A stretch of 64,000 bases of DNA from Candidatus Omnitrophica bacterium UBA6249 (GCA_002441305.1 DJVT01000014.1:101642-165641), one strand, 5' to 3'; positions 25,225 through 45,306 are shown, numbered from the stretch's first letter. Notes: generated by a model not told the origin, from the sequence alone. Made by a program: numbers and translations.

Positions 25225-25872
25225 TCAAAAGATATAAGACAGGCCTAAAATACCGAAGCTGTTATTGATGCCGCTATTAGGCTTATCTATATCGCAATTG
25301 GAAAGATGCCGATAGCGGTACTCGACGGTAAAGGCAACATTCTTTTTGAGGAAAAAATGTATGCCGAAACCGGCATATTCGTTGAAATTAAACTGGGATC
25401 CCTGGTTCAAGCTGTGCTGGGAGATATAAAGAAAACCTACGCCGCCTTTTATATACGGCTGTATCCTGGAGGCCTCAGGGAGCAGGCCGATCTTCAGTAG
25501 GAAATTATTCCCTACCTCGATATTCCCGTTGGGATTGGAAACTCCCGCGATAAAGGGCTCTTCGACAAACTGCACCAAACCCGGAGGGTTAAGGCCGATC
25601 TTCTTAACCCAGGGCTTGATGTCAAAATCGAAATCAACGAAAATGGGGATAACATCGTACCTGCCTTTGGCGCGAAGATGCCCCGTGCCAAAGCCGGACA
25701 GCACCTCTATTCCCGCGAAACGGAAGCTCTTGCTTTGCACCGCATCCTTGGCGGATGCGGTAGAGCACATCCTGGAGTTCTTTGTCGTCTCGCTTTGCGC
25801 ACCGGCACATACAAAAGCAAAAAGGCAAGAACCCAGTGCCAATAACAGCGTCAAAAACTTTGTTTTCCTCAT
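25225..25872 (-). CDS. Outer-membrane beta-barrel, PagL-like acyloxyacyl hydrolase family
   Basis: Signal peptide, alternating beta-strand pattern, YRHLSN (a His-x-Ser-Asn-like motif) and a C-terminal F. Confidence 0.6.
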
Positions 25873-26073
25873 TCTCGACTCTCCTTGGATTGGAAATTTA
25901 TGGGCCCCAAAGCAGAAAAATCAAGATGCAAAACAGGAGAAATAAAATCTCCTCTTCAACGCAATTATTGTATCATAAGGCAAAACAAAATCCAGAAGAT
26001 TACCGTAAGAGTTCCATATAATGTAGACTACAATAAAAAACGGCAGGTTCCATAATAGGTTAGATCGATAATA

Positions 26074-26880: not shown

Positions 26881-27002
26881 CCGTCTCTCCTTGTTATTCT
26901 CACTTTTTCACTGCTTAATGGCATAAATAACCGACTACAAAATCAATATATCTCAGGTTAATAGAACTACAAACGTTCCCGGGCGCTTGATAAAACCAGT
27001 CT

Positions 27003-29018: not shown

Positions 29019-29194
29019 TTTCTGCCTCCGGTTTTGAAGTTCCCAAAGAAAATAGTTCAAATAGAACGCTGTTAAGACCCCTCCTGCAACGAAGAAACAA
29101 GAATATCCCCCCCGGCAGTCACAAAACTATTATAATCAATCATTTTCCAATACTTACCAAAACGGGGATATTTTTAAACACAAAAGTATTGTAT

Positions 29195-30688: not shown

Positions 30689-30734
30689 AATTGCCTCCTT
30701 CTTCTGCAATTACTCCATACAAATAACTATTCCA

Positions 30735-31217
30735 TCACCTGGGGTTATAGATAAAATCGGAAGACGTTATTTCATAACTGGAACCGCCGTAAACTTTCAA
30801 ATATGCTTTTCCTGTTTCAGGATGCCATGTTATGAAATTACATGCGCTGTGCGGCTCATTATCCTCTTTTATATTGTTTTTATTCACATCTTGCCAAAAA
30901 CGCATATCTACTAAGTAACGGCCCCGGCTCTGGATCATATCCCCGGGAATACTTATTGTAATTTTGTATCTCCCCGTTCCTGAAGACACGCTCTCGGTCT
31001 TTATGGGGATGTTTGCAGAACCGTTTTTAAAAAGCGCCACTTTGTCATAACGCTTAGCTACCCCGGATATCGTTATGGTTACTCCTTGTCTAACGACATA
31101 GGCATTGGCAGTCCGCGAAGAAGATTCTTCTGCAGCCCCGGCATAGACAGAAGCCACAGCCGGAAATAACGTTCCCATCAAAACCAACACCGTTATTCTG
31201 CAATTCTGTATTCTCAT
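30735..31217 (-). CDS. Secreted hypothetical protein (160 aa)
   Basis: Signal-peptide-like N-terminus (VLVLMGTLFPAVASVYA). No recognisable domain. Confidence 0.55.
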   Translation of the reverse strand: MRIQNCRITVLVLMGTLFPAVASVYAGAAEESSSRTANAYVVRQGVTITISGVAKRYDKVALFKNGSANIPIKTESVSSGTGRYKITISIPGDMIQSRGRYLVDMRFWQDVNKNNIKEDNEPHSACNFITWHPETGKAYLKVYGGSSYEITSSDFIYNPR

Positions 31218-31254
31218 TCTTGCTCCTGGCCAGAGGGATAATTAAACGGATGCC

Positions 31255-31289
31255 TTAACAGAAAAGGAGTGGCGACAAATTGTCACCAC
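31255..31289 (-). terminator. Rho-independent terminator downstream of tRNA-Ser(GGA)
   Basis: The minus strand reads GTGGTGACA-AUU-UGUCGCCAC followed by UCCUUUUCUGUU. Confidence 0.45.
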
Positions 31290-31419
31290 CCCTTACTAAA
31301 CTCATTATCCAGCTTACGCATCTTCTTGATATAGTCCTAAACATTAGTTAGGCAAATCAATAAGCGCTAAAACAACACCATTAAATACAAACCGCCGGGA
31401 TCCACCTAAGCGTCAACAA

Positions 31420-31507
31420 TGGCGGAGAGGCAGGGATTCGAACCCTGGGAGCCTTGCGACTCACGTGTTCTCCAGACACGCCCGTTCGACCACTCCGGCA
31501 CCTCTCC
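31420..31507 (-). tRNA. tRNA-Ser (GGA), CCA encoded
   Basis: GGAGAGGTGCCGGAGTGGTCGAACGGGCGTGTCTGGAGAACACG... with a long variable arm and GGTTCGAATCC. Confidence 0.9.
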
Positions 31508-31538
31508 ATAATCAGGTCTTCTGCCCTAAACCTTCCGG

Positions 31539-32876
31539 TTACAGGGCTTGCAAATATATAAATCTTAAGATAAACAATACCGCCAAGCAATAAACCAGCC
31601 AGGACACGCTCTTGCCTTTACCGGTAAGCAACTTCAAGGCGGCAAAACTTATAAAGCCAAAGGCAATTCCCGTAGCGATACTAAAAGTAAAAGGCATAAT
31701 CAGCATCACCAGGAACGCCGGGATAAATTCCGAATAGTCCTTCCAATCAATCTTGGTAATCGGATATACCATCATGCTCCCGACGACAATCAAAGCCGGG
31801 GCGGTAACCGGACGCAAGATAACTCCCAATGCGGTCTGATACCCTCCCCCGATCATGCTGATCAAAGGCATAAAGAACAAAGTAAGCAAAAACAATATTC
31901 CCGTTACCACGCTTACCAGACCAGAGCGCCCGCCTGAAGCTATGCCGGCGGCACTTTCTACGTAACTGGTCACTGTAGGTGTGCCGCAAAATGCGCCTAT
32001 GCATGTGCCTACCGCATCAGTAAGCATTGCCTTCCCGGCCCTGGGCAGTTTTCCCTGGCGCATAAACCCGCCTATCTCCCCTACTCCCGCCAGAGTTCCG
32101 ACTGTGTCAAAGATGTCCATAAAAAGGAATATAAACACCACCGAAAACAAACCTAATTTCAGCGCCCCGGCAATATCCATCTTCATGAAAGTAGGGGCGA
32201 TGGACGGTGGCATGGACACAACCCCCTGGTATTTTACCACCCCAAGCAGTACGCCGGCAAAGGCGGTAATCAGTATCCCCCAAAGCACGGCCCCGCCGAC
32301 TTTCTTTATCAATAAAACCCCCGTGACCACCAATCCGAATATAGCCAGTATGGACGGCACGCTGGTTACATCACCTAAAGTCACCAGGGTCGAAGGGTGC
32401 CTTACTACAATCCCGGAGTCGATAAAACCTATAAAGGCAATAAACAGCCCTATACCGCAGGCAGTAGCGTAACGAATAGAAACCGGGATAGCATCCATAA
32501 TCGCCTGCCTTAATTTGGTAAGCGTCAGGATTATAAAAATTACCCCCTCGATAAATACACAGCCTAAAGCCACCTGCCAGGATATCCCCATAGTCAGGCA
32601 TACGGCATAGGTAAAAAACGCGTTTTCCCCCATACCCGGGGCCTGGGCGATAGGGTAATTCGCATACAGCCCCATCAGGATCGTAGCAGCCGCAGCGGCT
32701 ATACAGGTAGCCATCATCGCCGCCCCGAAATCCATACCTGTCTGCGAAATCATTGCCGGATTGACGAAAACGATATAGGCCATGGCCATAAACGTGGTAA
32801 AACCGGCGACTACTTCCGTACGGATATCGGTATTAAGTTCTTTAAGCCTAAAAAAACTTTCGATCCTCTTAAGCAT
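31539..32876 (-). CDS. NCS2-family purine (adenine/guanine/hypoxanthine) permease, AzgA-like
   Basis: 445 aa, polytopic. The N-terminus FRLKELNTDIRTEVVAGFTTFMAMAYIVFVNP is typical of this family. Confidence 0.85.
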   Translation of the reverse strand: MLKRIESFFRLKELNTDIRTEVVAGFTTFMAMAYIVFVNPAMISQTGMDFGAAMMATCIAAAAATILMGLYANYPIAQAPGMGENAFFTYAVCLTMGISWQVALGCVFIEGVIFIILTLTKLRQAIMDAIPVSIRYATACGIGLFIAFIGFIDSGIVVRHPSTLVTLGDVTSVPSILAIFGLVVTGVLLIKKVGGAVLWGILITAFAGVLLGVVKYQGVVSMPPSIAPTFMKMDIAGALKLGLFSVVFIFLFMDIFDTVGTLAGVGEIGGFMRQGKLPRAGKAMLTDAVGTCIGAFCGTPTVTSYVESAAGIASGGRSGLVSVVTGILFLLTLFFMPLISMIGGGYQTALGVILRPVTAPALIVVGSMMVYPITKIDWKDYSEFIPAFLVMLIMPFTFSIATGIAFGFISFAALKLLTGKGKSVSWLVYCLAVLFILRFIYLQAL

Positions 32877-32884
32877 CTTTTAAA

Positions 32885-32972
32885 CGGAGAGTGGAGGATT
32901 CGAACCTCCGGTCATCTTGCGACGACAACGGTTTTCGAGACCGCCGCATTCAACCAGCTCTGCCAACTCTCC
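32885..32972 (-). tRNA. tRNA-Ser (CGA)
   Basis: GGAGAGTTGGCAGAGCTGGTTGAATGCGGCGGTCTCGAAAACCG... with a long variable arm and GGTTCGAATCC. Confidence 0.9.
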
Positions 32973-33001
32973 AAACCCGTTTCTGCCGAGAAATCAACCC
33001 C

Positions 33002-33781
33002 TTAAGACCTGATATCCTCCTGGGCGATTTCCGGATGATGGTAACGCCTCCTGCCTTCGGTGGATTTCTTGTACTGGATGGCCTCAGCCGGGCACCACTG
33101 CAAGCAGGCCATACAGTGCTGGCAATGGTCAAACCAGTAAGGTTTTCCATCCCGCATTTCTATATTGTCAACCGGGCAGACCTTTGCGCAAAGTCCGCAT
33201 TTTATACAGGTATCTTTAACCCAGAATCCGCTTGCCGCGCCGGGGATTCCCAAAGAGCCGATATTGTATATCAAAGAGTAAAGTATCAAGTTCGCAAGAA
33301 AAGGCTTTTCTTCGTATATCCCCCGCTTCCCTTCCAGAATAAACTGTGAAAGCTCCTTGGCCCTCACCTTTTCTTTACGGAACATCTCCTCCTGTTGTTC
33401 TTTGGATACGGCACCGTACAACGGGGTATAATTACCAGGCATCATTACCGAGAAACCGCAAGCCAAATCAATACCGCGCCGGTTCAGGATCTTGCGGGCC
33501 AGACTATGCACCCTCCCCGGCATACCTCCGAAAGTGGCTATGGAGAATATATAAGCCCCAGGCTTGAATTTCGCCTCTTTCAGGAAATCTTTTATAATCA
33601 GAGGCAGTCCAAACATGTAAACCGGGAATACGAGGCCTACCTTGTCATACTGCTCCACCCCTCCCTCGTCGATAGCCCTGGAAACGGGGATAAGCGAAAC
33701 ACCCTCCAGGCCCCAGGCTACATCCTTTGCCACTACAAGAGAATTGCCTGTAGCCGAAAAATAATATATGGCTGTGCTCAT
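33002..33781 (-). CDS. EFR1-family ferredoxin (flavodoxin-like domain plus 2x[4Fe-4S])
   Basis: The N-terminus is IYYFSATGNS. The Cys clusters are CIKCGLCAKVCP and CQHCMACLQWCP. Confidence 0.7.
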   Translation of the reverse strand: MSTAIYYFSATGNSLVVAKDVAWGLEGVSLIPVSRAIDEGGVEQYDKVGLVFPVYMFGLPLIIKDFLKEAKFKPGAYIFSIATFGGMPGRVHSLARKILNRRGIDLACGFSVMMPGNYTPLYGAVSKEQQEEMFRKEKVRAKELSQFILEGKRGIYEEKPFLANLILYSLIYNIGSLGIPGAASGFWVKDTCIKCGLCAKVCPVDNIEMRDGKPYWFDHCQHCMACLQWCPAEAIQYKKSTEGRRRYHHPEIAQEDIRS

Positions 33782-33813
33782 CTAAGCCTCCGGTAAAAAC
33801 TAAATAATGTGTT

Positions 33814-33904
33814 TGGCGGTGGGGCTGGGATTCGAACCCAGGGTGGAGATAATCCCCACAACAGTTTTCAAGACTGCCGCTTTCAACCGCTCAGCCACCC
33901 CACC
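33814..33904 (-). tRNA. tRNA-Ser (TGA), CCA encoded
   Basis: GGTGGGGTGGCTGAGCGGTTGAAAGCGGCAGTCTTGAAAACTGT... with a long variable arm and GGTTCGAATCC. Confidence 0.9.
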
Positions 33905-34609
33905 TTAAAACAAGAATAACTGCTTAAATACAGCGTAAAAGATCCTTCCGGCTATACCGAAAGAAACATTGCAGAAGTTCACAAACGAGAACTCCTTAAA
34001 AATCAGGCTGAAGCCGAGAGCGAACAGAGCAAGATTCAAAATGAAAATAAACGAAAACCCGAATATATAGTTGCCTTTTAAAAAATCACCTTTTTTATTC
34101 CGTATGCTCTTGGCGGAAAAAACAAGATGCAAAATGGCGCTGAAACCGATAAGAAACATCGCGCATTCCAGCAGGCGAGCCGACTTGATCGGGAATTGCA
34201 ACAGGCCGTAAATTATGAATATCAAGATCGTATACATCGGGAGCAGGAACGGGGCCACGTTCACCATAGGCTTGAAAAACCTAAAAACAACCTCCAAAAG
34301 CTTATGCCCTCTGCTGTATACCGGAGCCGGCTCCCATATAAACAGGTAAACCAGCAGAAAAGAAATCACCCCTGCCCAGAATACTCCCTGCAAATGTCCG
34401 TCCACAGCGCGGAATTCATTCAAAAAAGACACTGTGGTAGAAAAAACAAAAGGGAGGAATACCAGCCCTAAAATGAATTTTATCACCCCGAAGGCCTTAC
34501 CCGAAAACCACGATATCTTGGCGGAAAAATTGCCTCCGGAGCCGGAAGGCTCTTTGGATAAAGGAATATCCTGAATCAGGTTCTTATCGAAAGATTCTTT
34601 CCTGGCCAT
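33905..34609 (-). CDS. Polytopic membrane protein, function unknown (234 aa)
   Basis: About 6 hydrophobic segments. Its stop abuts the tRNA 5' end and its start overlaps the serS 3' end. Confidence 0.55.
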   Translation of the reverse strand: MARKESFDKNLIQDIPLSKEPSGSGGNFSAKISWFSGKAFGVIKFILGLVFLPFVFSTTVSFLNEFRAVDGHLQGVFWAGVISFLLVYLFIWEPAPVYSRGHKLLEVVFRFFKPMVNVAPFLLPMYTILIFIIYGLLQFPIKSARLLECAMFLIGFSAILHLVFSAKSIRNKKGDFLKGNYIFGFSFIFILNLALFALGFSLIFKEFSFVNFCNVSFGIAGRIFYAVFKQLFLF

Positions 34610-35855
34610 TCAAATACGGCCGCAGTGCCTCGGGAACCAGCACCGAACCGTCCTCTTGTTGATAGTTCTCCAATATCGCAACCACCGTGCGCGCCAAAGC
34701 GACCCCCGAACCATTCAGGGTATGCACAAAATCTGTTTTCTTGCCCTCCTTGCGGCGCACCCTTATATTCGCCCTACGCGCCTGGAAGTTCTCGAAATTG
34801 CTGCAGCTGGATACCTCCAGCCACTTATCCGCTCCGGCGGTATAAGCCTCGATGTCATAACATTTGCTGGCGGAAAAACTGATATCCTGTGTGGAAAGCA
34901 TTACTACCCGATAAGGCAGGCCCAGAAGCTGCAGGACCTCTTCGGCGTTAGCCAATAATTTCTCCAGTTCATCGTAAGAATCCTCAGGCCTGACGAACTT
35001 CACCATCTCCACCTTATCGAATTCATGCACGCGGATCAGGCCGCGGGTATCCTTGCCGTAAGAACCCGCCTCCCGCCTGAAACAGGCGGTATAAGCGGTA
35101 TAATAAACAGGAAGCCTGTCTTCATCTATAATCTCGTCGCGGAAAATATTAGTAACCGGGACCTCGGCGGTAGGGATAAGAAAAAGATCGTCATCCTGAA
35201 GCTTGTACATATCCTCTTCCAGCTTGGGAAGCTGCCCTGTCCCGAGCATGGAGGCGCGGTTTACCAAAAACGGCGGGAATATCTCGGTGTAGCCGTGTTT
35301 TCCTGTATGCAGGTCGAGCATAAAATTTATCAAAGCGCGTTCAAGCTTGGCTCCCCATCCTTTAAAGAGGATAAAATTCGAACCGGTGATTTTGGTCGCG
35401 CGGTTGAAATCCACGATATCCAGATTCTGACAAAGCTCTATGTGGCTGAGCGGCTTAAAAGAAAACTTCTTCGGCTCGCCCCAGCTGCGTATAACCCTGT
35501 TACAGGAAGGGTCTCCTACCGGCAGGGAGGCATGCGGGATATTCGGTATGCTCAAAAGCAGCTTGTTTAACTCCGCCTCCTCTTCCTTTATCCGAGGCTC
35601 AAGCTCGCCGATCCTTTTCGATATATCCCTCATCGAGGAGATTTTATCTTTAGCGTCTTTTTTCTGCTTAAGCAACAGGCTTATCTCGTCGTTAGCCTTA
35701 TTGCGCCTGGCCGCCAATTCCTCGAATTCGCTTAAGGCCTTGCGGCGCCTTTCGTCGACGGAAATAACGGCATCGATATCGATATCCAGAGCGCGGTTAC
35801 GCATCGCCTGTTTGACTAAATCTGTATTCTCCCTGATAAACCTTATATCTAACAT
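34584..35855 (-). CDS. serS: Seryl-tRNA synthetase
   Basis: MLDIRFIRENTDLV..., an N-terminal coiled coil and class II motifs (FRREAGSYGKDTRGLIRVHEF, GSGVALARTVVAILENYQ). Confidence 0.95.
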   Translation of the reverse strand: MLDIRFIRENTDLVKQAMRNRALDIDIDAVISVDERRRKALSEFEELAARRNKANDEISLLLKQKKDAKDKISSMRDISKRIGELEPRIKEEEAELNKLLLSIPNIPHASLPVGDPSCNRVIRSWGEPKKFSFKPLSHIELCQNLDIVDFNRATKITGSNFILFKGWGAKLERALINFMLDLHTGKHGYTEIFPPFLVNRASMLGTGQLPKLEEDMYKLQDDDLFLIPTAEVPVTNIFRDEIIDEDRLPVYYTAYTACFRREAGSYGKDTRGLIRVHEFDKVEMVKFVRPEDSYDELEKLLANAEEVLQLLGLPYRVVMLSTQDISFSASKCYDIEAYTAGADKWLEVSSCSNFENFQARRANIRVRRKEGKKTDFVHTLNGSGVALARTVVAILENYQQEDGSVLVPEALRPYLNGQERIFR

Positions 35856-35924
35856 TTTAGCCTTTAATTGTAAAAAATGCCCGTAAACTTTTAATATTAT
35901 ACCTTTAGATTACAAATCTTTCAA

Positions 35925-35975
35925 CAACATAAACAAATAAACCGGCCAGGGTAAACCACTTGACCCTAATGCCGG
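35925..35975 (-). terminator. Rho-independent terminator downstream of tRNA-Lys
   Basis: The minus strand reads CCGGCAUUAGGGU-loop-ACCCUGGCCGG followed by UUUAUUUGUUUAUGUUGUU. Confidence 0.45.
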
Positions 35976-36051
35976 TATCTATGCTATATCCTATGAACTG
36001 ACAGGCCCTTTTCACGCTAAAGGCTGCAGTTCAGGAAGGTTATGAAATTTA

Positions 36052-36124
36052 TGGGCCATGTTGGAGTCGAACCAACGACCTTGACATTAAGAGTGTCCTG
36101 CTCTACCAATTGAGCTAATGGCCC
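36052..36124 (-). tRNA. tRNA-Lys (CTT), intact copy at the island's left junction
   Basis: GGGCCATTAGCTCAATTGGTAGAGCAGGACACTCTTAATGTCAAGGTCGTTGGTTCGACTCCAACATGGCCCA. Confidence 0.9.
36085..36124. repeat. attL-side 40-bp direct repeat (tRNA-Lys positions 1-40)
   Basis: CATTAAGAGTGTCCTGCTCTACCAATTGAGCTAATGGCCC, identical to 44594-44633. Confidence 0.9.
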
Positions 36125-36147
36125 TATTTGTTACAATTTATTTATTA

Positions 36148-37251
36148 TCAAACATTTGCAAGATTGGCTTCTTGGATAGATCTTGCATCAGCTGTGTTTG
36201 GTGTCCAAATAGTGACCATTTTATGGTCTAAAACACTTACAGCCTGCATTTTATGGTTAGGAGACAGGTGGCTATATCTTAAAGTCATTTCCAATGACTT
36301 ATGCCCCAATAACTCCCTAACCGTATTCAAATCCACCCCAGCCATAACCAACCTAGAGGCAAAACTATGCCTTAAATCATGGAAGTGAAAGTTAATTATA
36401 CCTGCTTTTTCTATTGCTGACAAGAAAGATTTTTTAATATCTCCATAGGGATTACCCTGCCTGTCACCGAACACATATTCAGAATTAGTGTGCTTGGGAA
36501 TATTCATAAGGACATTAAGGACAGTTTGGTTCATTGCCACCTTCCTCCCTTCCCCATTTTTTGTGTCATATAAGCTGATATACCTATGCTCCATATTAAT
36601 ATCTTTCCATTTAAGCTTGAGGATTTCCCCCTTCCTCATTCCAGTATGCAGGGCCACAACCACTATCCTTTTGAGGTAATCATTACAATTAGGCAATAGC
36701 CTGGCTTCCTCTTCTTCTGTCAAATACCTGTCCCTTTGGTTATTTTCCTTAAACTTTTTAACATTCTTGCAGGGATTCTCTTTAGCCTTACCCCATTCAA
36801 TTGCCCTATTGAACATGGATTTCAACACTGCCAAAGACCTGTTAACTGTGCCATGTTTTACCTTCTCTGCCCTTTCGTTCTTGAACTTTAAGATATCAAC
36901 TGCCTTAATTTCACTTAGGAACTTATTACCAAAATACCTGTTGAGCAAACCTACTATCTTCTCATCAGTATAATAAGATTTCTTAGGCTTGGAATGGATT
37001 TTTAGGTAATCTTGGGAGAAATCTGAGAATTTTACCTCTGGCTCTTTCTTTATATCAAGATACTTGTGTTCAGCAATTTCCACCAATATCTTGTTCAGGG
37101 CAACTTCAGCTACAGACCTACTTAGGCCAATTCTCTTCCTGTGCCTTCTGCCATTGGCCCTGTAGTCAATCCAATATGCCCCTCTTTTAAAGACTACCCC
37201 CATCTTTTTCCTGTTTTTTGGATTATATGAGACTTTTTCAGCTTTGTCCAT
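36148..37251 (-). CDS. int: Tyrosine recombinase / phage-type integrase
   Basis: The C-terminal catalytic region has HTGMRKGE, HDLRHSFAS and LLGHKSLEMTLRYSHL. Confidence 0.9.
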   Translation of the reverse strand: MDKAEKVSYNPKNRKKMGVVFKRGAYWIDYRANGRRHRKRIGLSRSVAEVALNKILVEIAEHKYLDIKKEPEVKFSDFSQDYLKIHSKPKKSYYTDEKIVGLLNRYFGNKFLSEIKAVDILKFKNERAEKVKHGTVNRSLAVLKSMFNRAIEWGKAKENPCKNVKKFKENNQRDRYLTEEEEARLLPNCNDYLKRIVVVALHTGMRKGEILKLKWKDINMEHRYISLYDTKNGEGRKVAMNQTVLNVLMNIPKHTNSEYVFGDRQGNPYGDIKKSFLSAIEKAGIINFHFHDLRHSFASRLVMAGVDLNTVRELLGHKSLEMTLRYSHLSPNHKMQAVSVLDHKMVTIWTPNTADARSIQEANLANV

Positions 37252-37441
37252 GAAAATCCTCGTCGATAACAGGGCATTCTTTCTTCCTAAGCCAAAACTC
37301 TAATTTCCTTGGGTCAAACCTTACAGCTCTTCCAACCTTGTAAAAAGGGATCTTCCCCAGCTTCACCCATGCATAAATTGTATGGATGGATAAACCCAGG
37401 TAAACAGCTGTTTCTTTAGGATTAAGGAAACGTTTTTCCAT
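37238..37441 (-). CDS. Excisionase-type (MerR-like) HTH DNA-binding protein
   Basis: LNPKETAVYLGLSIHTIYAWVKLGKIPFYKVGRAVRF. It overlaps the int start by 14 nt. Confidence 0.75.
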   Translation of the reverse strand: MEKRFLNPKETAVYLGLSIHTIYAWVKLGKIPFYKVGRAVRFDPRKLEFWLRKKECPVIDEDFHGQS

Positions 37442-37462
37442 GTCTATTTTAGAGGTATTTAT

Positions 37463-37509
37463 GGTATTAATGGTATTTGTAGCTTAATAACATAAATACC
37501 ATTAATACC
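37463..37509. repeat. Perfect 16-bp inverted repeat GGTATTAATGGTATTT / AAATACCATTAATACC with a 15-nt spacer
   Basis: The arms are at 37463-37478 and 37494-37509. They are built from (A/T)AATACC heptamers. Confidence 0.8.
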
Positions 37510-37516
37510 AACAATA

Positions 37517-38914
37517 CTAAGCTATGCCATATCTCTGTAGTATATTAAGCAATTTCCCTTTATGTATCCAATAACCTCTTGTTGGTTTTCCATTGATATT
37601 TTCTTGTTTTCCCTTACCTATGTTCAAAGAACTGACTAATTTCCCTACAAACCTAGGCACAAACCAGTTTGGCCTATTAGTTTCTTCATAGCCTAATCTC
37701 TCCATAAAAGTTGAATATATACTTTGTGAACTTATGAATTGCCTATCCTCAAACTTCCTAAGGGCAAATCTTCCATCCTCATACATTTCTTTAATTGTTG
37801 AAAGCAACTTTCTATCAAACAATTCATCTACTTCTGCTATTCGATCTTCGGTCTTTTCTTTAGCAAGGCCTACCATTTCCTCTAAAAGAACATCATCAAT
37901 TAAATAAGCTAAAGCAAAAATGGGTTGCCACATTAAAAAATAGTATCCCCTTAAACCAAAATCCTTCCTCTGCATTCTCCCTTTTGCCTCTTTGACATCC
38001 TCATAACAACCTAATGTGAATTTATATAATTCATCTCTGATTCTTTGCCACACTGAGTCTTCTTCCCTAGGATAATTGTTAGCTTTATCCCCTCTAGAAG
38101 GAGACATATTAAACAAAATACATCGATTCTTAAGTGCCTCCTCATTAATACCATAGATATTAGCGATCATCTTAGGAGAATAAACTTCATAATGTCTTGG
38201 CATTATTCTCTGGTCCTTTCCTTTATCAGAACGAATTACCTTGGCCCCCTTCTTAAAACCAGCCCTAAGCAACCCAAGAAGGATACCCTCCTCTTTTGTA
38301 TTGGCTGCTTTCTCAAGTTCATCAAGAAGGATAGTGCCTCTTGAACACTCAACAACCCTATATATGCTTGCATCTGATATATTAGCAGTATTAATAGCAT
38401 TAAACGCAACCCGTTCTGTTACATCAATTGTCTTAGATTTACCAGATCCAGACGGGCCATTAAGAAGCGGGATTGGATAAGCATCAAAAAGTGGGAAAAA
38501 ATATGTACCCATAACCCATAAAGCCATATAGCTATACATTCTTGGGTCTGGATAATCTAAATATTGTTCATATTTTCTTTTAATTATCCTAAATATCTTC
38601 CTAGGATGAGAGGGATAATCTTCCCCCCTTAGCCATTTTTCAATACTAGAATAGCTCCACCTTCCTTCCTTTAAATAACAATTGCTAGATTTAAACAGCC
38701 CCCTACTAAGAAGCTCTTCATTTGAAAGAAGGAATTTTTCCCTTTTGCTTGTTATTAACCAATACTTAAAAGATGTTTCTTTACTTCCATTTTCATTAAT
38801 TTCAGTTTGGAGTGGCACAGCCACAATTGCTAAACCATTAGCAAAATCAAGAGCAGGATGAATCTTTGTTAATTCTCCTTCAACCACCCTCACTTCCACA
38901 TAATCACCCTTCAT
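37517..38914 (-). CDS. DUF3631-like P-loop ATPase (replication/helicase-loader-like), homologous to the C-terminal half of the 7524-10007 protein
   Basis: LLNGPSGSGKSKT, LLDELEKA and EVYSPKMIANI align by eye with NAEKGSGKT, FIDEVEQL and SAYSPKMFAGI in the other protein. ATG 38914 has the SD AGGAGG; the track start is 38971. Confidence 0.7.
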   Translation of the reverse strand: MKGDYVEVRVVEGELTKIHPALDFANGLAIVAVPLQTEINENGSKETSFKYWLITSKREKFLLSNEELLSRGLFKSSNCYLKEGRWSYSSIEKWLRGEDYPSHPRKIFRIIKRKYEQYLDYPDPRMYSYMALWVMGTYFFPLFDAYPIPLLNGPSGSGKSKTIDVTERVAFNAINTANISDASIYRVVECSRGTILLDELEKAANTKEEGILLGLLRAGFKKGAKVIRSDKGKDQRIMPRHYEVYSPKMIANIYGINEEALKNRCILFNMSPSRGDKANNYPREEDSVWQRIRDELYKFTLGCYEDVKEAKGRMQRKDFGLRGYYFLMWQPIFALAYLIDDVLLEEMVGLAKEKTEDRIAEVDELFDRKLLSTIKEMYEDGRFALRKFEDRQFISSQSIYSTFMERLGYEETNRPNWFVPRFVGKLVSSLNIGKGKQENINGKPTRGYWIHKGKLLNILQRYGIA

Positions 38915-39069
38915 CTTTCCTCCTACGTTAAAAAAATTAATAAGGTTATCCCAATAAAAAAGGGCCTTCACGGAAGTATGAATCTTTGCACTTCCAATGA
39001 GACCCTTCGGCTGATGTTAACTCATTTAAAACAAAATTTGGAACTTAATGCCTAAAGGTAAATAGTTTC

Positions 39070-39348
39070 TTACTTCATAATGACCCCCTCTTTTATTAAT
39101 TGTTTCATAGCCAATTTAGAAGGTATACTCTTTGCCTTCTCCCAACGGATTACTGCTAATCTTCCAACACCTAACTTTTTAGCTAAATCCTCCTGAGATA
39201 AACCATTTTTAATCCTATAGCCTTTTACCTTGGAAGCTAAATAAGATTTCCTTGCTTCATCTTTCAAGCCCTTTCCACCTCTAGTAGCTTTTTCAATTTG
39301 ACCTTGGATATCTTTAAGATTTTTAAGTAAAATTGATAACCTAGCCAT
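39070..39348 (-). CDS. XRE-family HTH protein (92 aa)
   Basis: LSQEDLAKKLGVGRLAVIRWEKAK is an HTH. Confidence 0.7.
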   Translation of the reverse strand: MARLSILLKNLKDIQGQIEKATRGGKGLKDEARKSYLASKVKGYRIKNGLSQEDLAKKLGVGRLAVIRWEKAKSIPSKLAMKQLIKEGVIMK

Positions 39349-39366
39349 ATCTCTCCTTTGTATTCA

Positions 39367-39395
39367 AGCATACACTAAATAATACATAATGTCAA
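39367..39395 (-). promoter_or_regulatory. Sigma70-type promoter for the 39348 HTH gene
   Basis: The minus strand reads TTGACA (39390-39395)-17 nt-TATGCT (39367-39372). Confidence 0.45.
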
Positions 39396-39510
39396 GTAAT
39401 TTTTTTATTTCTAAATGTTCTATATTATAGGGTTCTAAACTACCCTGTATTTTGGCGCATAAGCTAGTAAATTTGCACAATGTGATTCCAAATGCAATAT
39501 ACCGCCGGTA

Positions 39511-39551
39511 TAAAAATAACAGGCCTTAAAATGGCTATTTTGGCCTTTTTT
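39511..39551 (-). terminator. Hairpin terminator, potentially bidirectional, downstream of the TPR gene
   Basis: AGGCC-TT-AAAAT-GGCT-ATTTT-GGCCT, flanked by an A-run on one side and a T-run on the other. Confidence 0.45.
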
Positions 39552-39669
39552 ATAGCTAAAGCAATTGGGTATGGATAAAACTAGCTATGATTTCAGTTAT
39601 TCCATTAATTACTATTCACTTGCAAGATTATTTAAGGTAGGAATAAACTAAAGATTGGGAGGTTATTTT

Positions 39670-40410
39670 TCAGGATTTCTCATCTCCTAAATAAGGGCTA
39701 ATTTCCTTGACTATTTCTTCTGACCCATACATTTCAGGGTCTAATTTTAAACATTTCATATAATCTTCTTTTGCTTCTTTATGCCTTCCCAGTTTTCCAT
39801 AAAGTAGGCTACGTTGATAATAATATGTGGATAGGTTTACCACTCCCAAATTATCATCAGGTTTTATTTTTAAGGAAATCTCAGAATCCCTAATTGCTGA
39901 ATCAAAATCCTTCTTCATAGAATAAACAAAGGCCCTACTATTGAAAGATTCATAATCAGATGGATTAAGTTCTATAGCTCTACTAAAATTGCAAATGGAT
40001 TTATCCCATTCCTCTATTTTTGAATAACAATACCCCAAATTATAGTAGGTTCTTTGGCTGTTACGATCAAGCTTGATAACCCGATTGAGATAATTAATGG
40101 CTCCTCTAAAATCACCTCTACCTGTGCAATTATTAGCTAGCCTTTCCAACTGATGTTCATTAAGCTTAGCGTCCCTATAAAAAAACTCTATATATGTCCC
40201 AACAATAATACCTATTATGAAAGAAAAAATAACAGAGAATGCTCCTTTATCTATCAATTCTCTATAAGTTAAATATCTACCAGTCTCAGCATCTACAGCA
40301 AAATCTTTAGCAATAAGATAATGCGCGACTTTAAATACTATGATAACCCCTATGGTTATACCAATACCCAAGAAGATTTTCTTTATTATTGGCTTATATT
40401 TGTTGAGCAT
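39670..40410 (-). CDS. Membrane-anchored TPR-repeat protein (246 aa)
   Basis: Two N-terminal TM segments, followed by TPR-like repeats (AINYLNRVIKLDRNSQRTYYNLGYCY..., AIELNPSDYESFNSRAFVY...). Confidence 0.75.
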   Translation of the reverse strand: MLNKYKPIIKKIFLGIGITIGVIIVFKVAHYLIAKDFAVDAETGRYLTYRELIDKGAFSVIFSFIIGIIVGTYIEFFYRDAKLNEHQLERLANNCTGRGDFRGAINYLNRVIKLDRNSQRTYYNLGYCYSKIEEWDKSICNFSRAIELNPSDYESFNSRAFVYSMKKDFDSAIRDSEISLKIKPDDNLGVVNLSTYYYQRSLLYGKLGRHKEAKEDYMKCLKLDPEMYGSEEIVKEISPYLGDEKS

Positions 40411-40438
40411 AGCTTATCTCTATTAATACAAATATTTG

Positions 40439-40807
40439 TTATTTTGCCTCTTCTTTAATGATGTGGTGATAAATCTCCTCTTGCGACCTGTCAGGCATTA
40501 ATGTGCCATAATCCCCAGGCTGACCATAAAAAACAAGTTTGCCATCCTCAAATTGAAGCCAATAAGTCACATTCCCAGTCAAGCCATTGGCTGTAGGATA
40601 GCTTGGGGCATATAGTGTATATTCCCATGTTTCAATAAGCTTGCTATCTTGAGATCTAGCCTGGGCTCTTAATAAATAAGGCTTACCAACTATTTTCTGC
40701 ACTTCATCCTTAGACATACCCATTTTAAGTAGAGATATTTTATTAGCTGATAAGGTAGCACAGCCCATCATAAACAATATCATTACGAATAAAATCAATC
40801 TTTTCAT
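40439..40807 (-). CDS. Lipoprotein with a BamE/SmpA-like fold
   Basis: Lipobox LFMMGC. GMSKDEVQKIVGKPY is typical of BamE-like domains. Confidence 0.65.
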   Translation of the reverse strand: MKRLILFVMILFMMGCATLSANKISLLKMGMSKDEVQKIVGKPYLLRAQARSQDSKLIETWEYTLYAPSYPTANGLTGNVTYWLQFEDGKLVFYGQPGDYGTLMPDRSQEEIYHHIIKEEAK

Positions 40808-40921
40808 GCTATCTCCTTTCTCTTATTACTAAGATTATATCACCTAATATATTTGGTGTAAATGGTTAACACCGACAATAGTAGGTGGTAAATATTAAGG
40901 CTCTATTAGACAATATAGCCA

Positions 40922-41134
40922 ATGGAAAATATCAATATTAGATTTGGTAAAAAATTGAGGGGCTTAAGAAAAAAACACCAACTAACTCAGGAAGAACTTT
41001 CTGAAGCTTCAGGATTGGACTATAAATATATTCAAAGACTAGAAAGCAATAAACCTTCTTCCCCTACCTTGAACTCATTACAGAAACTTGCTAAGGCTTT
41101 TAAAATTACTTGTTCTCAATTGTTAAAAATTTAA
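40922..41134 (+). CDS. XRE-family HTH regulator (70 aa); the only plus-strand gene of the island
   Basis: LTQEELSEASGLDYKYIQRLESNK is an HTH. The gene is convergent with the ABC ATPase gene. Confidence 0.75.
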   Translation: MENINIRFGKKLRGLRKKHQLTQEELSEASGLDYKYIQRLESNKPSSPTLNSLQKLAKAFKITCSQLLKI

Positions 41135-41150
41135 GTTTCTATCCAGTGTT

Positions 41151-42917
41151 TTAAAAGTTGAATTTAAACAGCTTTTGTGTAGGAGTATAAACTGCAACGG
41201 CTTCTTGCTCTATCTTTTCAGAAGAAACCTGATCAGTGTCTCCAAAATCATGAGACAAAGTTCCTTCTTCATTGAGTGTCAAGATATACTGGAATCTATT
41301 CCCCTCCTTTTTCTTCTGCTCAAGAAAAGTATAGAGAGAAACAAAATGAGCCTTATCCATACCATCAAAAATTCCATCATGCACTAAAAATCTAGGAACA
41401 GGGATATTTTTTTTAATAGCATTAAATAATACTGTCAAATCATACACTAATGTACGTCCTTTGTTTTTCCCCTTAGAAAGAACATCAGGAAAATCGATAC
41501 CAATTTCTAACTTTGCATCTGTATTTAATTTATCACTAATTGTAAAAACAGACTGTTCTTTAGTTTCGGGATAAATTGCATTGTATATTTCATTAAAAAT
41601 TCCAGAAATCTGAGATACTTCTGTTGTTTGTATATCATCAATAAATCTTTTAACTTGGATAGCAATATCCTTATCTTTCTTTTCTAAATCTAATATTTCA
41701 TACTGAAGAGTATTGTAAGTTTTTAATTTTGCTTCTAAATCACTTAGTTTATTTTTCTTAATATTGAGCGTATAGAAGGCTTCGGTTAAATCATTAATGG
41801 CTCCTTTAGTAGAAAGGAAATTAAAAAGCTTTGTTCTCTGTTCTTCAAGACTATTAATACTATTTTCTCTTAATCTTATAGCTTCTTTCAATTTATCTAT
41901 TTCTTCTTTCATGAAATTCTCTCTAGAAATTGCAAGCTCTTTATTAAATTCAATAACTTCCTCTAGAGACTTTTTAACCTTTTCCCCCAGCAATTGATTA
42001 AACTCACTGTATATTCTTCCAATTCTAGTTTTCGAAATAGAGGGAACGGTTTTAAGACTGGCCAGGTAACTATTTATTTTATCTCTGTCAGAATAATTTT
42101 GATACCATAGGGCTTTAATTTCTTCGGTTAATTTATTGGCTTCCTGTTCAGCATCTTGATATTGTTCTCCGAGTTTAAAAGCATCTAAAGCATTTTTAAT
42201 TACTTCAACCTCTCTTTTCAGTTTATTAATCTCATTGTTTGCTTCTTTTATATCGGTTAGTGCGTAGTCTGTCTCGACAATATTTTTTACTTCCCTCAAA
42301 GCAGGAATTTTTCTCTTAAAAGACTCTTGAATCTTAAAATTATCTACCACAATTGAGTTATCAATATTCATCAGATAAAGATGGACTTGGTTTAGTTCTG
42401 CTGTAGACATCTCTTTGATATATTGTATAGGATCTAAGAATTTTGATGTCTTATGTTTCTGGATTTTTAGAAAGAATAACATTAAAGTTCTAAACCATTT
42501 CCCTTCTATCTTGCCTGGGTATTCCCTGTTGCTAAATAATAAGATAAATAACTTTGATTTTGCCTCGCTAAGAGGATATGTTGTGATTGCTCCGATTTGA
42601 CCATATTCAATTTCATTTGGATTGTTTGTATTCCTTTTAATGATAAATTCTTGACCGTTTACTTCAAACTCAAGCACTATTTTATATGAACTTATCTTTG
42701 GACTAGCAAGGGAAAGACGAGGATTGTGTTTTTCTTGAAATGAGGAGAGAAGACAAAAGTCTAATAGATCAAGTAAAGTAGATTTTCCAATACCGTTTAA
42801 GGATTTTTTGGGATCTCCTTTACGATCTTTCTTCCCATAAATAAAATTAATCCCATCAATAAAAGTGATGGAATTAAAGAGTCCTGTTGGTTCAGAGTAG
42901 AGACGTTTTAAAAACAT
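41151..42917 (-). CDS. Coiled-coil ABC ATPase, DUF2326 / LmuB-like (ABC-3C-type)
   Basis: The N-terminal Walker A is SLNGIGKST. A ~300-aa K/E/L-rich coiled-coil middle follows. The C-terminus has RFLVHDGIFDGMD (Walker B/D-loop-like) and QYILTLNE. Confidence 0.75.
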   Translation of the reverse strand: MFLKRLYSEPTGLFNSITFIDGINFIYGKKDRKGDPKKSLNGIGKSTLLDLLDFCLLSSFQEKHNPRLSLASPKISSYKIVLEFEVNGQEFIIKRNTNNPNEIEYGQIGAITTYPLSEAKSKLFILLFSNREYPGKIEGKWFRTLMLFFLKIQKHKTSKFLDPIQYIKEMSTAELNQVHLYLMNIDNSIVVDNFKIQESFKRKIPALREVKNIVETDYALTDIKEANNEINKLKREVEVIKNALDAFKLGEQYQDAEQEANKLTEEIKALWYQNYSDRDKINSYLASLKTVPSISKTRIGRIYSEFNQLLGEKVKKSLEEVIEFNKELAISRENFMKEEIDKLKEAIRLRENSINSLEEQRTKLFNFLSTKGAINDLTEAFYTLNIKKNKLSDLEAKLKTYNTLQYEILDLEKKDKDIAIQVKRFIDDIQTTEVSQISGIFNEIYNAIYPETKEQSVFTISDKLNTDAKLEIGIDFPDVLSKGKNKGRTLVYDLTVLFNAIKKNIPVPRFLVHDGIFDGMDKAHFVSLYTFLEQKKKEGNRFQYILTLNEEGTLSHDFGDTDQVSSEKIEQEAVAVYTPTQKLFKFNF

Positions 42918-43144
42918 TACTCTTTTCTTAAGTAAATTTGATAATCATTAAGTTCAATTATATTAGCTACCCACAATGTAGTTAGAATATCATGGAACCG
43001 AACTACATCAAGACCCGAAGCAAGTTTAACTTCTTGATAGAGAGTTTCAATGTTATATGGTTTTCTTTTTAGGATCTGGATTACTCCTGCCCCTAGAACC
43101 AAAAGATTCATTTTTAAATCTTCGTTTTTTCTAGGAATAAGCAT
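42917..43144 (-). CDS. Small middle-component-like protein (75 aa)
   Basis: It is translationally coupled on both sides (TAGATG upstream, TAATG downstream). Its size and position match the ABC-3C middle component / LmuC. Confidence 0.55.
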   Translation of the reverse strand: MLIPRKNEDLKMNLLVLGAGVIQILKRKPYNIETLYQEVKLASGLDVVRFHDILTTLWVANIIELNDYQIYLRKE

Positions 43145-43744
43145 CTATTGCTTTCTGTCTTTTTCTTTTGACGTTTTCTTACCAATATCACAGAATTCAA
43201 AGAAATGCAACACTAATGCTTTGGCATTAGATAAATAAAGAGGGTTGGTCTTTTGTTTTTCAGGCACAAAATTCTTTGCTAATTCTTCAATTATACTTAT
43301 ACTTTCAATCGCTGAATTAGTTGCAGACACATTTTTGACTCTACAATATTCTGATTGAACTAACTCTAGAAGACTTAATACTTCCATCGGGCTAGATTGA
43401 TATTTCTGTTTGAGGAATTTTTCAGACAATGTCTTTTGGGTCCAAACATTCATAACCATTTCTTCAATACGCCTAATTTGATCAGATTGAAAATTAATTT
43501 GTATTTTTTCCTGGAGACAAACAAAATCTTCGCTTAATTCTACGTCCTCTTTTGAATTAAATTCTTTATTAGAAGCTATTATATGGTTATAAATTTCTTC
43601 TATGATTCCCCAATCCTGTTCTTCTTTTTTACTAATACTAAGATACAAATTTGTATCTCTCCCGGAGGCAACATTGTTATTTCCATTTATATTTATTCCT
43701 TCATTATTATTTACCAATGTTTGTATCTCCTCCTGAAAGAACAT
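43145..43744 (-). CDS. 199-aa protein in the effector position of the ABC-3C-like operon, with no recognisable catalytic domain
   Basis: It is the first long gene of the coupled trio, with an Asn/Gly-rich N-terminus (NNNEGININGNNNVASGRDTN) and a helical remainder. Confidence 0.55.
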   Translation of the reverse strand: MFFQEEIQTLVNNNEGININGNNNVASGRDTNLYLSISKKEEQDWGIIEEIYNHIIASNKEFNSKEDVELSEDFVCLQEKIQINFQSDQIRRIEEMVMNVWTQKTLSEKFLKQKYQSSPMEVLSLLELVQSEYCRVKNVSATNSAIESISIIEELAKNFVPEKQKTNPLYLSNAKALVLHFFEFCDIGKKTSKEKDRKQ

Positions 43745-43874
43745 TCTTATTGCCTCTTACATTTTGTTTCACATTTAGATTATAATTTTTTTCAAGAGAA
43801 TTGACTTTAAATAAAGCAATACAGCTAATCACTAAAGAACCAATAGAGGCCAAATTGGCTAATATATTAAGCAT
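43707..43874 (-). CDS. Candidate 55-aa single-TM peptide (below the ORF-track cutoff)
   Basis: ATG 43874 is preceded by the SD GGAGAAGG. The sequence is MLNILANLASIGSLVISCIALFKV...NVRGNKNVLSGGDTNIGK. It overlaps the 199-aa gene by 38 nt in another frame. Confidence 0.35.
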   Translation of the reverse strand: MLNILANLASIGSLVISCIALFKVNSLEKNYNLNVKQNVRGNKNVLSGGDTNIGK

Positions 43875-43922
43875 CTTAACCTTCTCCTTCTACTTTAAAT
43901 AAGACTTTAATGTCAGTTTTTT

Positions 43923-43950
43923 ATTATATCACTCTGCTTTTTGTATACAA
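43923..43950 (-). promoter_or_regulatory. Extended -10 promoter for the ABC-3C-like operon
   Basis: The minus strand reads TTGTAT-16 nt-(TGA)TATAAT, with a perfect -10 at 43923-43928. Confidence 0.4.
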
Positions 43951-44064
43951 GCAAATCTCAAGACAATAATTTTGTTCTTTAGAGGACGTTTTGAGGAATC
44001 TCTAGTGGATGGCTTTATACCCAAGATTAATTTATTCGCTGGTAGACAAACAGTAAGATATGTT

Positions 44065-44187
44065 TTATCTTACCTTAACCCAAAAATGGAAGTATTTAGC
44101 CTTTTTAGGGTAAATGATTCTACCATTTTTGTGCACGTACCTGGTAAAAATTTCTTTATACCCTGTACGTAATTCTCGCTGCTTCAT
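44065..44187 (-). CDS. Candidate 40-aa basic peptide
   Basis: ATG 44187 is preceded by the strong SD GGGAGGTGA. The sequence is MKQRELRTGYKEIFTRYVHKNGRIIYPKKAKYFHFWVKVR. Confidence 0.3.
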   Translation of the reverse strand: MKQRELRTGYKEIFTRYVHKNGRIIYPKKAKYFHFWVKVR

Positions 44188-44328
44188 CTTACCTCACCTC
44201 CCTTTGGACCAGATTGCTTAACACGCGGCCCAAATTGAAATAAAACCAAAGGGGCCCGGTAAGTACTAGCTGATCTCAGGAAAGCGAGAAATAGAAAGAA
44301 CAAGTATTGCCTACCAGCGCCAAAAATA

Positions 44329-44356
44329 AGTATATACCAAAAAACCAACTTGTCAA
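44329..44356 (-). promoter_or_regulatory. Sigma70-type promoter near the island's right end
   Basis: The minus strand reads TTGACA (44351-44356)-16 nt-TATACT (44329-44334). Confidence 0.4.
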
Positions 44357-44593
44357 ATAAAAATACTGTATTCTGTATACTGACTTAAATATATCTACAA
44401 CATATAGTAATAATACTTTCATTCTGTAACTTCATGAATCAGTCATATACAAACTGGTGTCCAAGTAGTGCCCATTTTTAATCTAAATCATAATAATCAA
44501 TACCAATCAATACCAACAAAAAATCCCCCATAAGTGATTCATTATGGAGGACTTAACTGATTTATCGTCGATAACTGGACAATCCTAAAATAT

Positions 44594-44633
44594 CATTAAG
44601 AGTGTCCTGCTCTACCAATTGAGCTAATGGCCC
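44594..44633. repeat. attR-side 40-bp direct repeat: the displaced native 5' half of tRNA-Lys
   Basis: It is identical to 36085-36124. No tRNA 3' half follows it; the adjacent sequence is ...CCTAAAATAT. Confidence 0.9.
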
Positions 44634-44708
44634 GAAGTAATCAACCGTTTATTTGCTCATGTTAAGCACCCAGGCAAAGAGATATCCCAGGCGCTAAGAT
44701 CAGGTGTT

Positions 44709-44737
44709 ATTGTAGCCTAAAACCGGTTATTTTGCAA
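44709..44737 (-). promoter_or_regulatory. Probable native tRNA-Lys promoter, now upstream of the orphan 5' fragment
   Basis: The minus strand reads TTGCAA (44732-44737)-17 nt-TACAAT (44709-44714), about 75 nt upstream of the fragment's 5' end. Confidence 0.5.
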
Positions 44738-44811
44738 CTTCAATTTAAATTAAAAGGAAATGCCGAAACCAAGGCGGTTTTCAATACGAGGAAAGATCCG
44801 TATTCGCTTAC

Positions 44812-45306
44812 TTACTCGGTTTTCTTTACTTTATTTTCTTCGGGAAACTGGCGGCCCTTCATAACCCCGTTCTCGTAAGTATCCGCGTATATAAGCTCGC
44901 CATCGGGGCGGTATGTCCTGGAAACCCCGTCCAACTTCCCGTCCTTATAACTCATTTCGGCCTGGAGCTTGCCGTTTTCAAAATAGAATCTCGATATCCC
45001 GTGGGATTTATCGTTCTTATAGTTGACCTTCGCCTGCAGTTTGCCGCTTTCGAAATAAAACCTTGCCTCCCCCTCTTTTTTGCCGTCTTTGTAGTTCCAT
45101 ATCAATTTCAGGCGGCCGTTCGGGTAATAGGACTTGAAGGCGCCGTTGAGCTTGCCCTGCTTGATTGCCCCGGTCTCCCGCAGTTTCCCGTCGGAATAAC
45201 GCGACTTGAAAGAGCCGCTTCCCGGTGCCTTGGTTTTCGATAAGAATAAGCCTATGACCGAACCGACAATGACCGCGCTCAATAATAAGATTATTTTTCT
45301 CTTCAT
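44812..45306 (-). CDS. MORN-repeat (YwqK-like) protein with an N-terminal signal/anchor
   Basis: The repeats are Y.NG.L......YK.GK..G; examples are YYPNGRLKLIWNYKDGKKEG and FYFENGKLQAEMSYKDGKLDG. Confidence 0.8.
   Translation of the reverse strand: MKRKIILLLSAVIVGSVIGLFLSKTKAPGSGSFKSRYSDGKLRETGAIKQGKLNGAFKSYYPNGRLKLIWNYKDGKKEGEARFYFESGKLQAKVNYKNDKSHGISRFYFENGKLQAEMSYKDGKLDGVSRTYRPDGELIYADTYENGVMKGRQFPEENKVKKTE

Follow-up and report, generated by a model that had tools for sequence, protein, structure and literature searches.

The locus described here raises the question of how a tRNA gene is kept whole, and from where it is transcribed, when an integrative island supplies its 5′ half and leaves its native upstream region behind. 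We examined 64,000 nt of one strand of Candidatus Omnitrophica bacterium UBA6249 (GCA_002441305.1 DJVT01000014.1:101642-165641), a whole stretch that we call the window, with positions counted from its first letter. Its intact recombinant tRNA-Lys(CTT) gene lies on the minus strand at 36052..36124, where ARAGORN and Rfam agree with a first-pass annotation made from the sequence alone; at 69.4 bits it is the top-scoring tRNA of the window by Rfam, and its 7-nt anticodon loop, CTCTTAA, occupies 36087-36093. The tyrosine integrase gene int (36148..37251, minus strand) lies just upstream, as annotated, with its 3′ end abutting the tRNA 5′ end and its stop 23 nt away, not the 24 nt first given. A 40-nt direct repeat (GGGCCATTAGCTCAATTGGTAGAGCAGGACACTCTTAATG on the minus strand) begins precisely at tRNA +1 and stops 2 nt beyond the anticodon loop. 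The int-proximal copy (36085..36124, minus strand) is tRNA positions 1-40 and forms the attL core, and the far-junction copy (44594..44633, minus strand) is a displaced tRNA-Lys 5′ fragment that forms the attR core, with the native upstream flank still adjoining. The repeats had been called perfect, and our comparison confirmed it: they are 40/40 identical, on the same strand and 8,509 bp apart. The island body between them (36125..44593, listed on the minus strand, as are nearly all of its genes) has a G+C content (GC) of 30-38% against 47-51% in the flanks by composition profile, and the insertion unit is 8,509 bp counting one repeat copy. The chromosomal flanks carry serS (34584..35855, minus strand) downstream of the tRNA and a MORN-repeat gene (44812..45306, minus strand) upstream of the native tRNA. 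By its SerS relatives the host belongs to Candidatus Omnitrophota. No further int copies or remnants were found in the 64-kb window. Very probably this is a site-specific integrative island with an ABC-3C/PDC-M68-like cargo, whose attP holds tRNA-Lys(CTT) positions 1-40 directly after the 3′ end of int.

The insertion itself could be read from same-species contigs, which we obtained by exact-sequence look-ups of the two flanking proteins (MORN and SerS). In L244 (GCA_028711535.1), a contig of an island-free genome, the MORN-serS spacer of 447 nt matches window(-) 44811..44594 joined to 36084..35856 at 100% identity, so that attB is reconstructed as the window minus the island. A second contig, L243 (GCA_028693475.1), likewise spans the empty site, its two alignment blocks overlapping by the 40-nt repeat. 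The match to the empty site shows a precise insertion of 8,509 bp with the repeat at its boundaries, and the native upstream region has been displaced. The flank from 44634 up is the native upstream region of tRNA-Lys; together with the native 5′ fragment it is now separated by 8.5 kb from the working gene, and what precedes that gene is island DNA. The first-pass annotation had proposed that the intact gene combines a chromosomal 3′ half with an island-supplied 5′ half and that the native 5′ half stays at the far junction. Both empty sites bear this out, with the tRNA in the predicted orientation relative to the flanks and the join falling at the repeat and not outside it. The tRNA-Lys of L244 has the same sequence as the recombinant tRNA of the window. 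The island is present, at 99.995% identity, in L241/L250 (JGI 3300001592).

Four Logan assemblies, L242 (ending at window 44604), L248 (starting at 36114), L245 and L251, have breaks inside the 40-nt repeat. These fit mixed occupied and empty alleles or a circular form, and equally a k = 31 assembler meeting a 40-nt repeat. The L251 island contig is 8,539 bp long (8,509 + 30) and has a 30-nt terminal overlap, which is not decisive for an excised circle, because a k = 31 assembler gives a 30-nt overlap for any unit bounded by a 40-nt repeat, whether circle or insert. A related Omnitrophota metagenome-assembled genome (MAG), L016, is island-free with a SerS 82% identical to that of the window. 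It was rejected as an empty site because an int pseudogene remnant sits upstream of its tRNA-Lys, and it is thus not an untouched attB.

Capture of the 5′ half is already known in kind. The Islander collection holds 159 islands with a 5′ fragment versus 3,760 with a 3′ fragment, i.e. 159/3,919, and its algorithm explicitly accepts a 5′ fragment upstream of the tDNA (PMC4383910). Elements normally recombine with the 3′-distal part of a tRNA gene, 5′-distal cases being "considerably less frequent" (PMC6563490); that paper cites Zhao & Williams 2002 (J Bacteriol 184:859) and several archaeal elements, e.g. CalSub-E1 in tRNA-Ser. The first-pass annotation was therefore right that the layout mirrors that of the canonical tRNA island, but the arrangement has precedents, and the island joins a minority class.

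Within the family of this integrase, by contrast, the 5′-part arrangement is the default and not a 4% minority. A database search returned 6,576 integrase relatives at E < 1e-20 among 8,000 scored candidates, and those with a source annotation are mostly labelled Omnitrophota. Scanning metagenomes with a 23-sequence integrase alignment yielded 80 loci (L081-L160; 41-60% identity), 70 of which have enough sequence past int to be informative. A same-strand tRNA starts about 0-40 nt from the int stop, or overlaps int, in 59 of the 70, while the opposite orientation, which is the canonical 3′-end arrangement, is seen in five (L098, L129, L138, L153 and L156). The remaining 6/70 have no tRNA call after int; in two of them, L086 and L128, int is followed by tRNA positions 1-39 or 1-38 and these in turn by non-tRNA DNA, and such junctions look like attP or a join between tandem islands. 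A scan of viral contigs gave distant integrases alone (30-48% identity), and in this rough control just 3/76 have a co-oriented tRNA at the int stop. Four further islands could be delimited. They lie in tRNA-Met (L096; repeat of positions 1-41, island of 6,433 bp), tRNA-Arg-CCG (L152; positions 1-39 with one mismatch, 3,045 bp), tRNA-Thr-TGT (L253; positions 1-38, 8,244 bp) and tRNA-Lys-CTT (L257; positions 1-38, 9,793 bp). With the window included, all five repeats run from +1 to 0-2 nt past the anticodon loop (positions 38-41).

The targets across the family are Lys-CTT, Met-CAT (12 loci), Thr, Arg, Ala, Leu, Ser, Val, Phe and Gln, and frequently the gene hit stands first in a Met-Val, Lys-Gly or Thr-Tyr-Gly operon. 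There is a skew to C at anticodon position 34: non-Met tRNAs with C34, e.g. Lys-CTT, Arg-CCT/CCG, Ala-CGC, Thr-CGT, Leu-CAA and Gln-CTG, make up 31/59 family targets, counted over loci that are not independent. Such C34 tRNAs are usually redundant with U34 isoacceptors. In the five members with the canonical orientation the int 3′ end faces the tRNA 3′ end, and in L159 int is followed by the reverse complement of a tRNA-Thr 3′ half. Judged from these gene orders, one integrase family has switched between 5′ and 3′ usage, and has done so even where the tRNA is the same (Met-CAT). In many members the int frame reads on into the tRNA, its stop codon falling 9-47 nt past the tRNA start (L103, L112, L119 and L139 at -38; L096, L108 and L126 at -9; also L140, L141, L147 and L148), the C-terminal tail of the integrase then being encoded by the attP-borne tRNA 5′ half. 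In L082 (~7100-7200), int is followed by a tRNA-Lys(CTT) that has a D-arm deletion in its 5′ part and is not called by ARAGORN, a possible defective island-supplied 5′ half.

Joining the island ends of the window sequence predicts an attP junction that reads ...TTGTAACAAATA-GGGCC...CTTAATG-ATATTTTAGG.... Because repeat identity ends at the anticodon stem-loop in all five delimited islands, we infer that the crossover lies in the anticodon loop and that the stem arms act as core sites. Recombination needs identity in the overlap alone, and the 31 extra nt of perfect identity back to +1 therefore point to selection to rebuild a working tRNA. For arm-type Int sites there are good candidates in the paired repeats on either side of the core. 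On the P arm, TGGTCAC-N4-TGGACAC lies inside the int 3′ coding end (36201..36218, minus strand), and on the P′ arm TGGGCAC-N4-TGGACAC lies about 120 nt inside the far end (44457..44474, minus strand). The paired motif TGGWCAC-N4-TGGACAC has just these two matches in the 64-kb window versus 0.19 expected, and a two-arm repeat layout is also present in L096, L152 and L086, where the motifs change in concert from one element to the next, L152 and L086 each having a different one. Between the arm sites and the core is the motif CAAatgtTTGATAAT (36144..36158, minus strand), the reverse complement of WATCAANNNNTTR, which we take to be the consensus of integration host factor (IHF). In 23-27 family loci the motif CAAnnnnTTGATAATAAA precedes the tRNA by 25-28 or 15-16 nt, and it is kept in different int reading frames; its strict form is found in 13/59 loci versus 0.2 expected. 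The attP appears lambda-like, in that each arm has paired arm-type repeats and an IHF-consensus motif is also present. We also considered TTGATAATAAA as a -10 or -35 box of the tRNA and rejected it: its distance is fixed, but no sigma-70 geometry fits, and it matches the IHF consensus instead.

From these elements a course of integration can be proposed. Int and the HTH_17 excisionase-like protein, probably with IHF, would bridge the paired attP arm-type sites to the anticodon-stem core sites, and strand exchange would take place inside the 7-nt anticodon loop, mirroring the usual anticodon-loop class of tRNA integration. The recombinant gene would then consist of island positions 1 to about 38 and the chromosomal 3′ part.

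As to where the recombinant gene is transcribed from, the first-pass annotation saw no convincing promoter between int and the tRNA, and we likewise found none in the 23-nt spacer. A promoter within the 90 nt before the tRNA was rejected on the 59 co-oriented loci: the mean score is 7.4 versus 7.1 in int-internal controls (Mann-Whitney p = 0.016), with none reaching at least 10/12 and no practically meaningful enrichment. Our best candidate source of tRNA transcription is a sigma-70-like promoter inside int. This promoter-like element (36395..36423, minus strand) reads TTGTCA-17-TATAAT toward the tRNA, scores 11/12, has a -10 box ending about 270 nt upstream of +1 and falls in codons for SFLSAIEKAGII. 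At the homologous position, 25/42 closer homologues score at least 10/12, with TTTACA, TTGACC or TCGACA, a 17-nt spacer and TATAAT. The mean score in the 42 is 8.83, versus 7.20 +/- 0.13 under synonymous recoding, a null that keeps the same peptides and uses the codon usage of the int genes themselves. By this measure the element is preserved at synonymous sites in the closer relatives. The site codons are ATA for Ile in 34/41 (ATA usage across int genes is 36%), GGT for Gly in 24/25 (27%) and ACA for Thr in 24/35 (29%). The element is absent in L098, a closer-subfamily member with canonical orientation.

The remnant in L016 (L016:7287-7509) lies directly upstream of tRNA-Lys and is 71% identical over residues 275-316. 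Its homology starts 2 codons before TTGACC-17-TATAAT (L016:7293-7321) and continues to the tRNA, and an internal deletion takes out the catalytic Tyr region. The remnant suggests that the host has kept DNA of island origin as the lasting upstream region of its tRNA.

We propose that the recombinant tRNA would be transcribed from the int-embedded sigma-70-like promoter (36423-36395) and that the leader would be cut off by normal 5′ processing. At the far junction, the first-pass annotation had put a promoter, TTGCAA-17-TACAAT, before the displaced fragment. The candidate is present (44709..44737, minus strand), 75 nt upstream of the fragment and in what is the true native upstream flank; the label "near-consensus" was overstated, because it matches 9/12 positions and the region holds 8 such matches versus 5.1 +/- 2.6 in shuffled sequence. 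A terminator-like hairpin with a T-run (44521..44554, minus strand) follows on the island side, 40 nt after the displaced 5′ fragment, and lying just inside the far end it may limit read-in from this orphaned promoter. At the level of the clade, the proposal is that a tyrosine-integrase clade, mostly of Omnitrophota, captures the tRNA 5′ half by default (about 84-92% of loci), often in the first gene of an operon. It would compensate through a synonymous-site promoter in int that takes over host tRNA or operon transcription and that may persist after decay, as in L016, with canonical members showing orientation flips. We regard this clade-level proposal as evenly balanced between being right and being wrong.

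Several points weigh against this reading. The recoding test gives z = 12.3, a value that overstates independence because the homologue sequences are related. The embedded element is missing from the more distant half of the family, which keeps the 5′ orientation, and from about a quarter of the closer members, and it cannot be a universal solution since much of the 5′-oriented family lacks it. We scored a sigma-70 consensus, and the promoter rules of Omnitrophota are uncharacterised. The embedded promoter could also serve otherwise, e.g. reading across attP in the excised circle. The hairpin at the far end is suggestive only, with 1 terminator-like site in the region versus 1.3 by chance. The proposed crossover position is taken solely from where identity ends, and the roles given to IHF and the arm sites are pattern matches at predicted sites.

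The main alternative, possible though we consider it doubtful, is that integration took place in the same way but that the tRNA depends on read-through, as the first-pass annotation suggested, starting at the xis-int operon promoter or at a point before it. The embedded promoter would then be used otherwise, e.g. in a circle-specific manner across attP. Read-through would suit a gene order in which int and the tRNA are co-oriented and 0-40 nt apart, at times overlapping, in 59 loci, and about half of the family lacks the embedded promoter yet has the same orientation. On the minus strand of the window there is no terminator-like site in the int-tRNA interval, and a TGGACA-17-TATAAT match stands at the int start (37250-37222, minus strand). 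Integrase promoters, however, are usually weak or repressed when integrated, which would make this one poorly suited to a tRNA, and the L016 remnant has lost the 5′ part of int together with its promoter but has kept the embedded promoter and the tRNA. A role across attP would be useful in L086, where excisionase-like and 456-aa genes follow the core in the same direction; in the window, the terminator-like hairpin after the core on the P′ arm would block such read-across.

A less probable alternative, and to us an unlikely one, is that the recombinant tRNA-Lys(CTT) is poorly expressed or silent. Its loss would be tolerated as tRNA-Lys(UUU) can read AAG, and 5′-half islands would persist mainly at dispensable tRNAs. 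The typically redundant C34 tRNAs among the targets (the 31/59 above) and the defective D-arm of the uncalled tRNA-Lys after int in L082 speak for this, as does the lack of a canonical promoter close to the tRNA. Against it, the window repeat restores positions 1-40 with no mismatch and the repeat starts at +1 in 5/5 delimited islands, when the 7-nt overlap alone needs identity. Targets such as Met-CAT (12 loci), Phe-GAA, Thr-TGT, Ser-TGA and the first genes of Met-Val and Thr-Tyr-Gly operons, moreover, cannot be silenced. That the 40-nt repeat is coincidental or a duplication artefact, the low-GC segment having arrived otherwise and its true boundaries being different, is already refuted and has practically no probability left, because the two island-free contigs join exactly at the repeat, with the 447-nt reconstructed spacer 100% identical, and four further islands of the same integrase family have the same 5′-part repeat.

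Taken as an island that brings its target a new 5′ half and a candidate promoter, the element can be set beside known systems. With Islander-type tRNA-gene islands it shares a tyrosine recombinase with the R-H-R-H/Y signature, an intact tDNA at one end with a cognate fragment in direct orientation at the other, and a precise absence in L244/L243. Like the reverse-orientation islands that make up the Islander 5′-fragment class, it carries the 5′ part of its target, leaves the displaced fragment upstream and supplies a new upstream region. It differs from them in that the arrangement is here the default of a large family, versus a 4% minority, and in that a candidate promoter embedded in int is identified. 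The anticodon-loop class (Williams 2002 sublocation "A"; 2,083 Islander islands) shares the inferred loop crossover, the symmetric stem flanks, the restored gene and int at the intact-tRNA junction. In that class identity starts at the loop and extends to the 3′ end; here it begins at +1 and stops just past the loop, the int 3′ end and not its 5′ end faces the tRNA, and the native promoter is lost. The islands with dusA-specific integrases (PMC4482086) also integrate at the 5′ end of their target, so that the element must replace the gene start and upstream signals, but their target is protein-coding and their integrase family is different. The archaeal 5′-distal elements (CalSub-E1 etc.; cited in PMC6563490) likewise use the 5′ region of the tRNA gene, in archaeal hosts, with unrelated integrases and as single cases, not as a clade-wide rule.

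The likeness to phage lambda attP lies in paired direct repeats either side of the core, an IHF-consensus motif between arm sites and core, and an adjacent Xis-like gene; here, however, both the P-arm sites and the IHF-like motif fall within int coding sequence or right at its end, and they are known from sequence alone. In SSV-type integrases attP is in int and the gene is split on integration, whereas the int of the window is a complete 367-aa open reading frame (ORF) with the core starting 23 nt past its stop. Three features seen by sequence comparison go beyond precedent: the preference across the clade, the int-embedded candidate promoter and the L016 remnant.

For an uncultured phylum, the locus now provides an integration event that is fully delimited and verified by comparison. 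Regeneration of the 3′ end by tRNA islands is taken for granted by tools and intuition alike, and here is a clade in which the reverse is the rule; island mapping in candidate phyla therefore misses or misplaces boundaries if the search covers nothing but the downstream side of tRNA genes. Should the int-embedded promoter prove real, it would be a clear example of how a mobile element takes control of host tRNA gene transcription. A promoter would in that case constrain the synonymous sites of a coding sequence, and the fixation of integrase remnants as host regulatory DNA would have an explanation. The clade-level proposal, if true, would be of interest to researchers of mobile elements and of tRNA gene expression. 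The integrases are in addition a natural set of recombinases with differing tRNA specificities and both target orientations.

Within the island, int encodes a 367-aa tyrosine integrase (Pfam Phage_integrase, PF00589, 4.3e-36; Int_N 9.5e-11; PHROG integrase 2.8e-77), and R206, H291, R294, H317 and Y326 are invariant in the alignment with 23 homologues. The HTH_17 excisionase-like gene (37238..37441, minus strand; 67 aa; Pfam HTH_17 1.3e-12 and PHROG excisionase families) overlaps the int start by 14 nt. Adjoining xis-int is a gene for a 484-aa protein with no assigned function (37517..38971, minus strand). Searches of Pfam, NCBIfam, PADLOC and PDB sequences gave no significant match for this protein; it matches a function-unknown PHROG family marginally (E = 1.8e-4) and has no homology to the 456-aa protein of L086. 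Further along the minus strand are genes for an HTH_3 regulator (39070..39348; 92 aa), a TPR-repeat protein (39670..40410; 246 aa) and a small BamE-like protein (40439..40807; 122 aa; weak match). On the plus strand, divergent from the defence operon, is a gene for an HTH_3 (RstR/HipB-like) regulator (40922..41134; 70 aa). The operon itself consists of three minus-strand genes. The first product is an ABC-3C/PDC-M68B ATPase (DUF2326, LmuB-like; 41151..42917; 588 aa), whose match is clear (Pfam DUF2326 1.1e-21; PADLOC PDC-M68B 4.7e-72). The other two matches are below threshold: an ABC-3C middle component MC6-like protein (42917..43144; 75 aa; Pfam MC6 1.5e-05, at 25.3 bits versus a gathering cutoff of 27.2) and an ABC-3C CTD10/PDC-M68A-like effector (43145..43744; 199 aa), for which the evidence is weak (Pfam CTD10 0.0026, at 18.8 versus a cutoff of 28.1; PADLOC PDC-M68A 2.5e-4). 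The cargo is thus best described as a candidate anti-phage defence system of the ABC-3C/PDC-M68-like kind.

Islands of the same family differ strongly in cargo. The one in L257 (L257:1286-11078) has a large-terminase-like gene and RepA_N and resembles a satellite or prophage remnant, and the one in L253 (L253:2842-11085) has an nSTAND1 ATPase and a PIN protein and is defence-like. The window also contains two other low-GC stretches. Positions 1-4400 (33-38%) hold no listed ORF of at least 100 aa, in a listing that an ORF running off the window start would escape, and the proteins encoded at positions 26000-31000 (about 39-40%) include BNR-like and M48 peptidase ones, but neither an integrase nor a repeat of a tRNA fragment is present there. 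On the serS side of the island, serS lies amid four same-strand tRNA-Ser genes (GCT, GGA, CGA and TGA; window 19590-35855), and tRNA-Ser(TGA) and tRNA-Ser(CGA) are found downstream of serS in most related Omnitrophota contigs as well.

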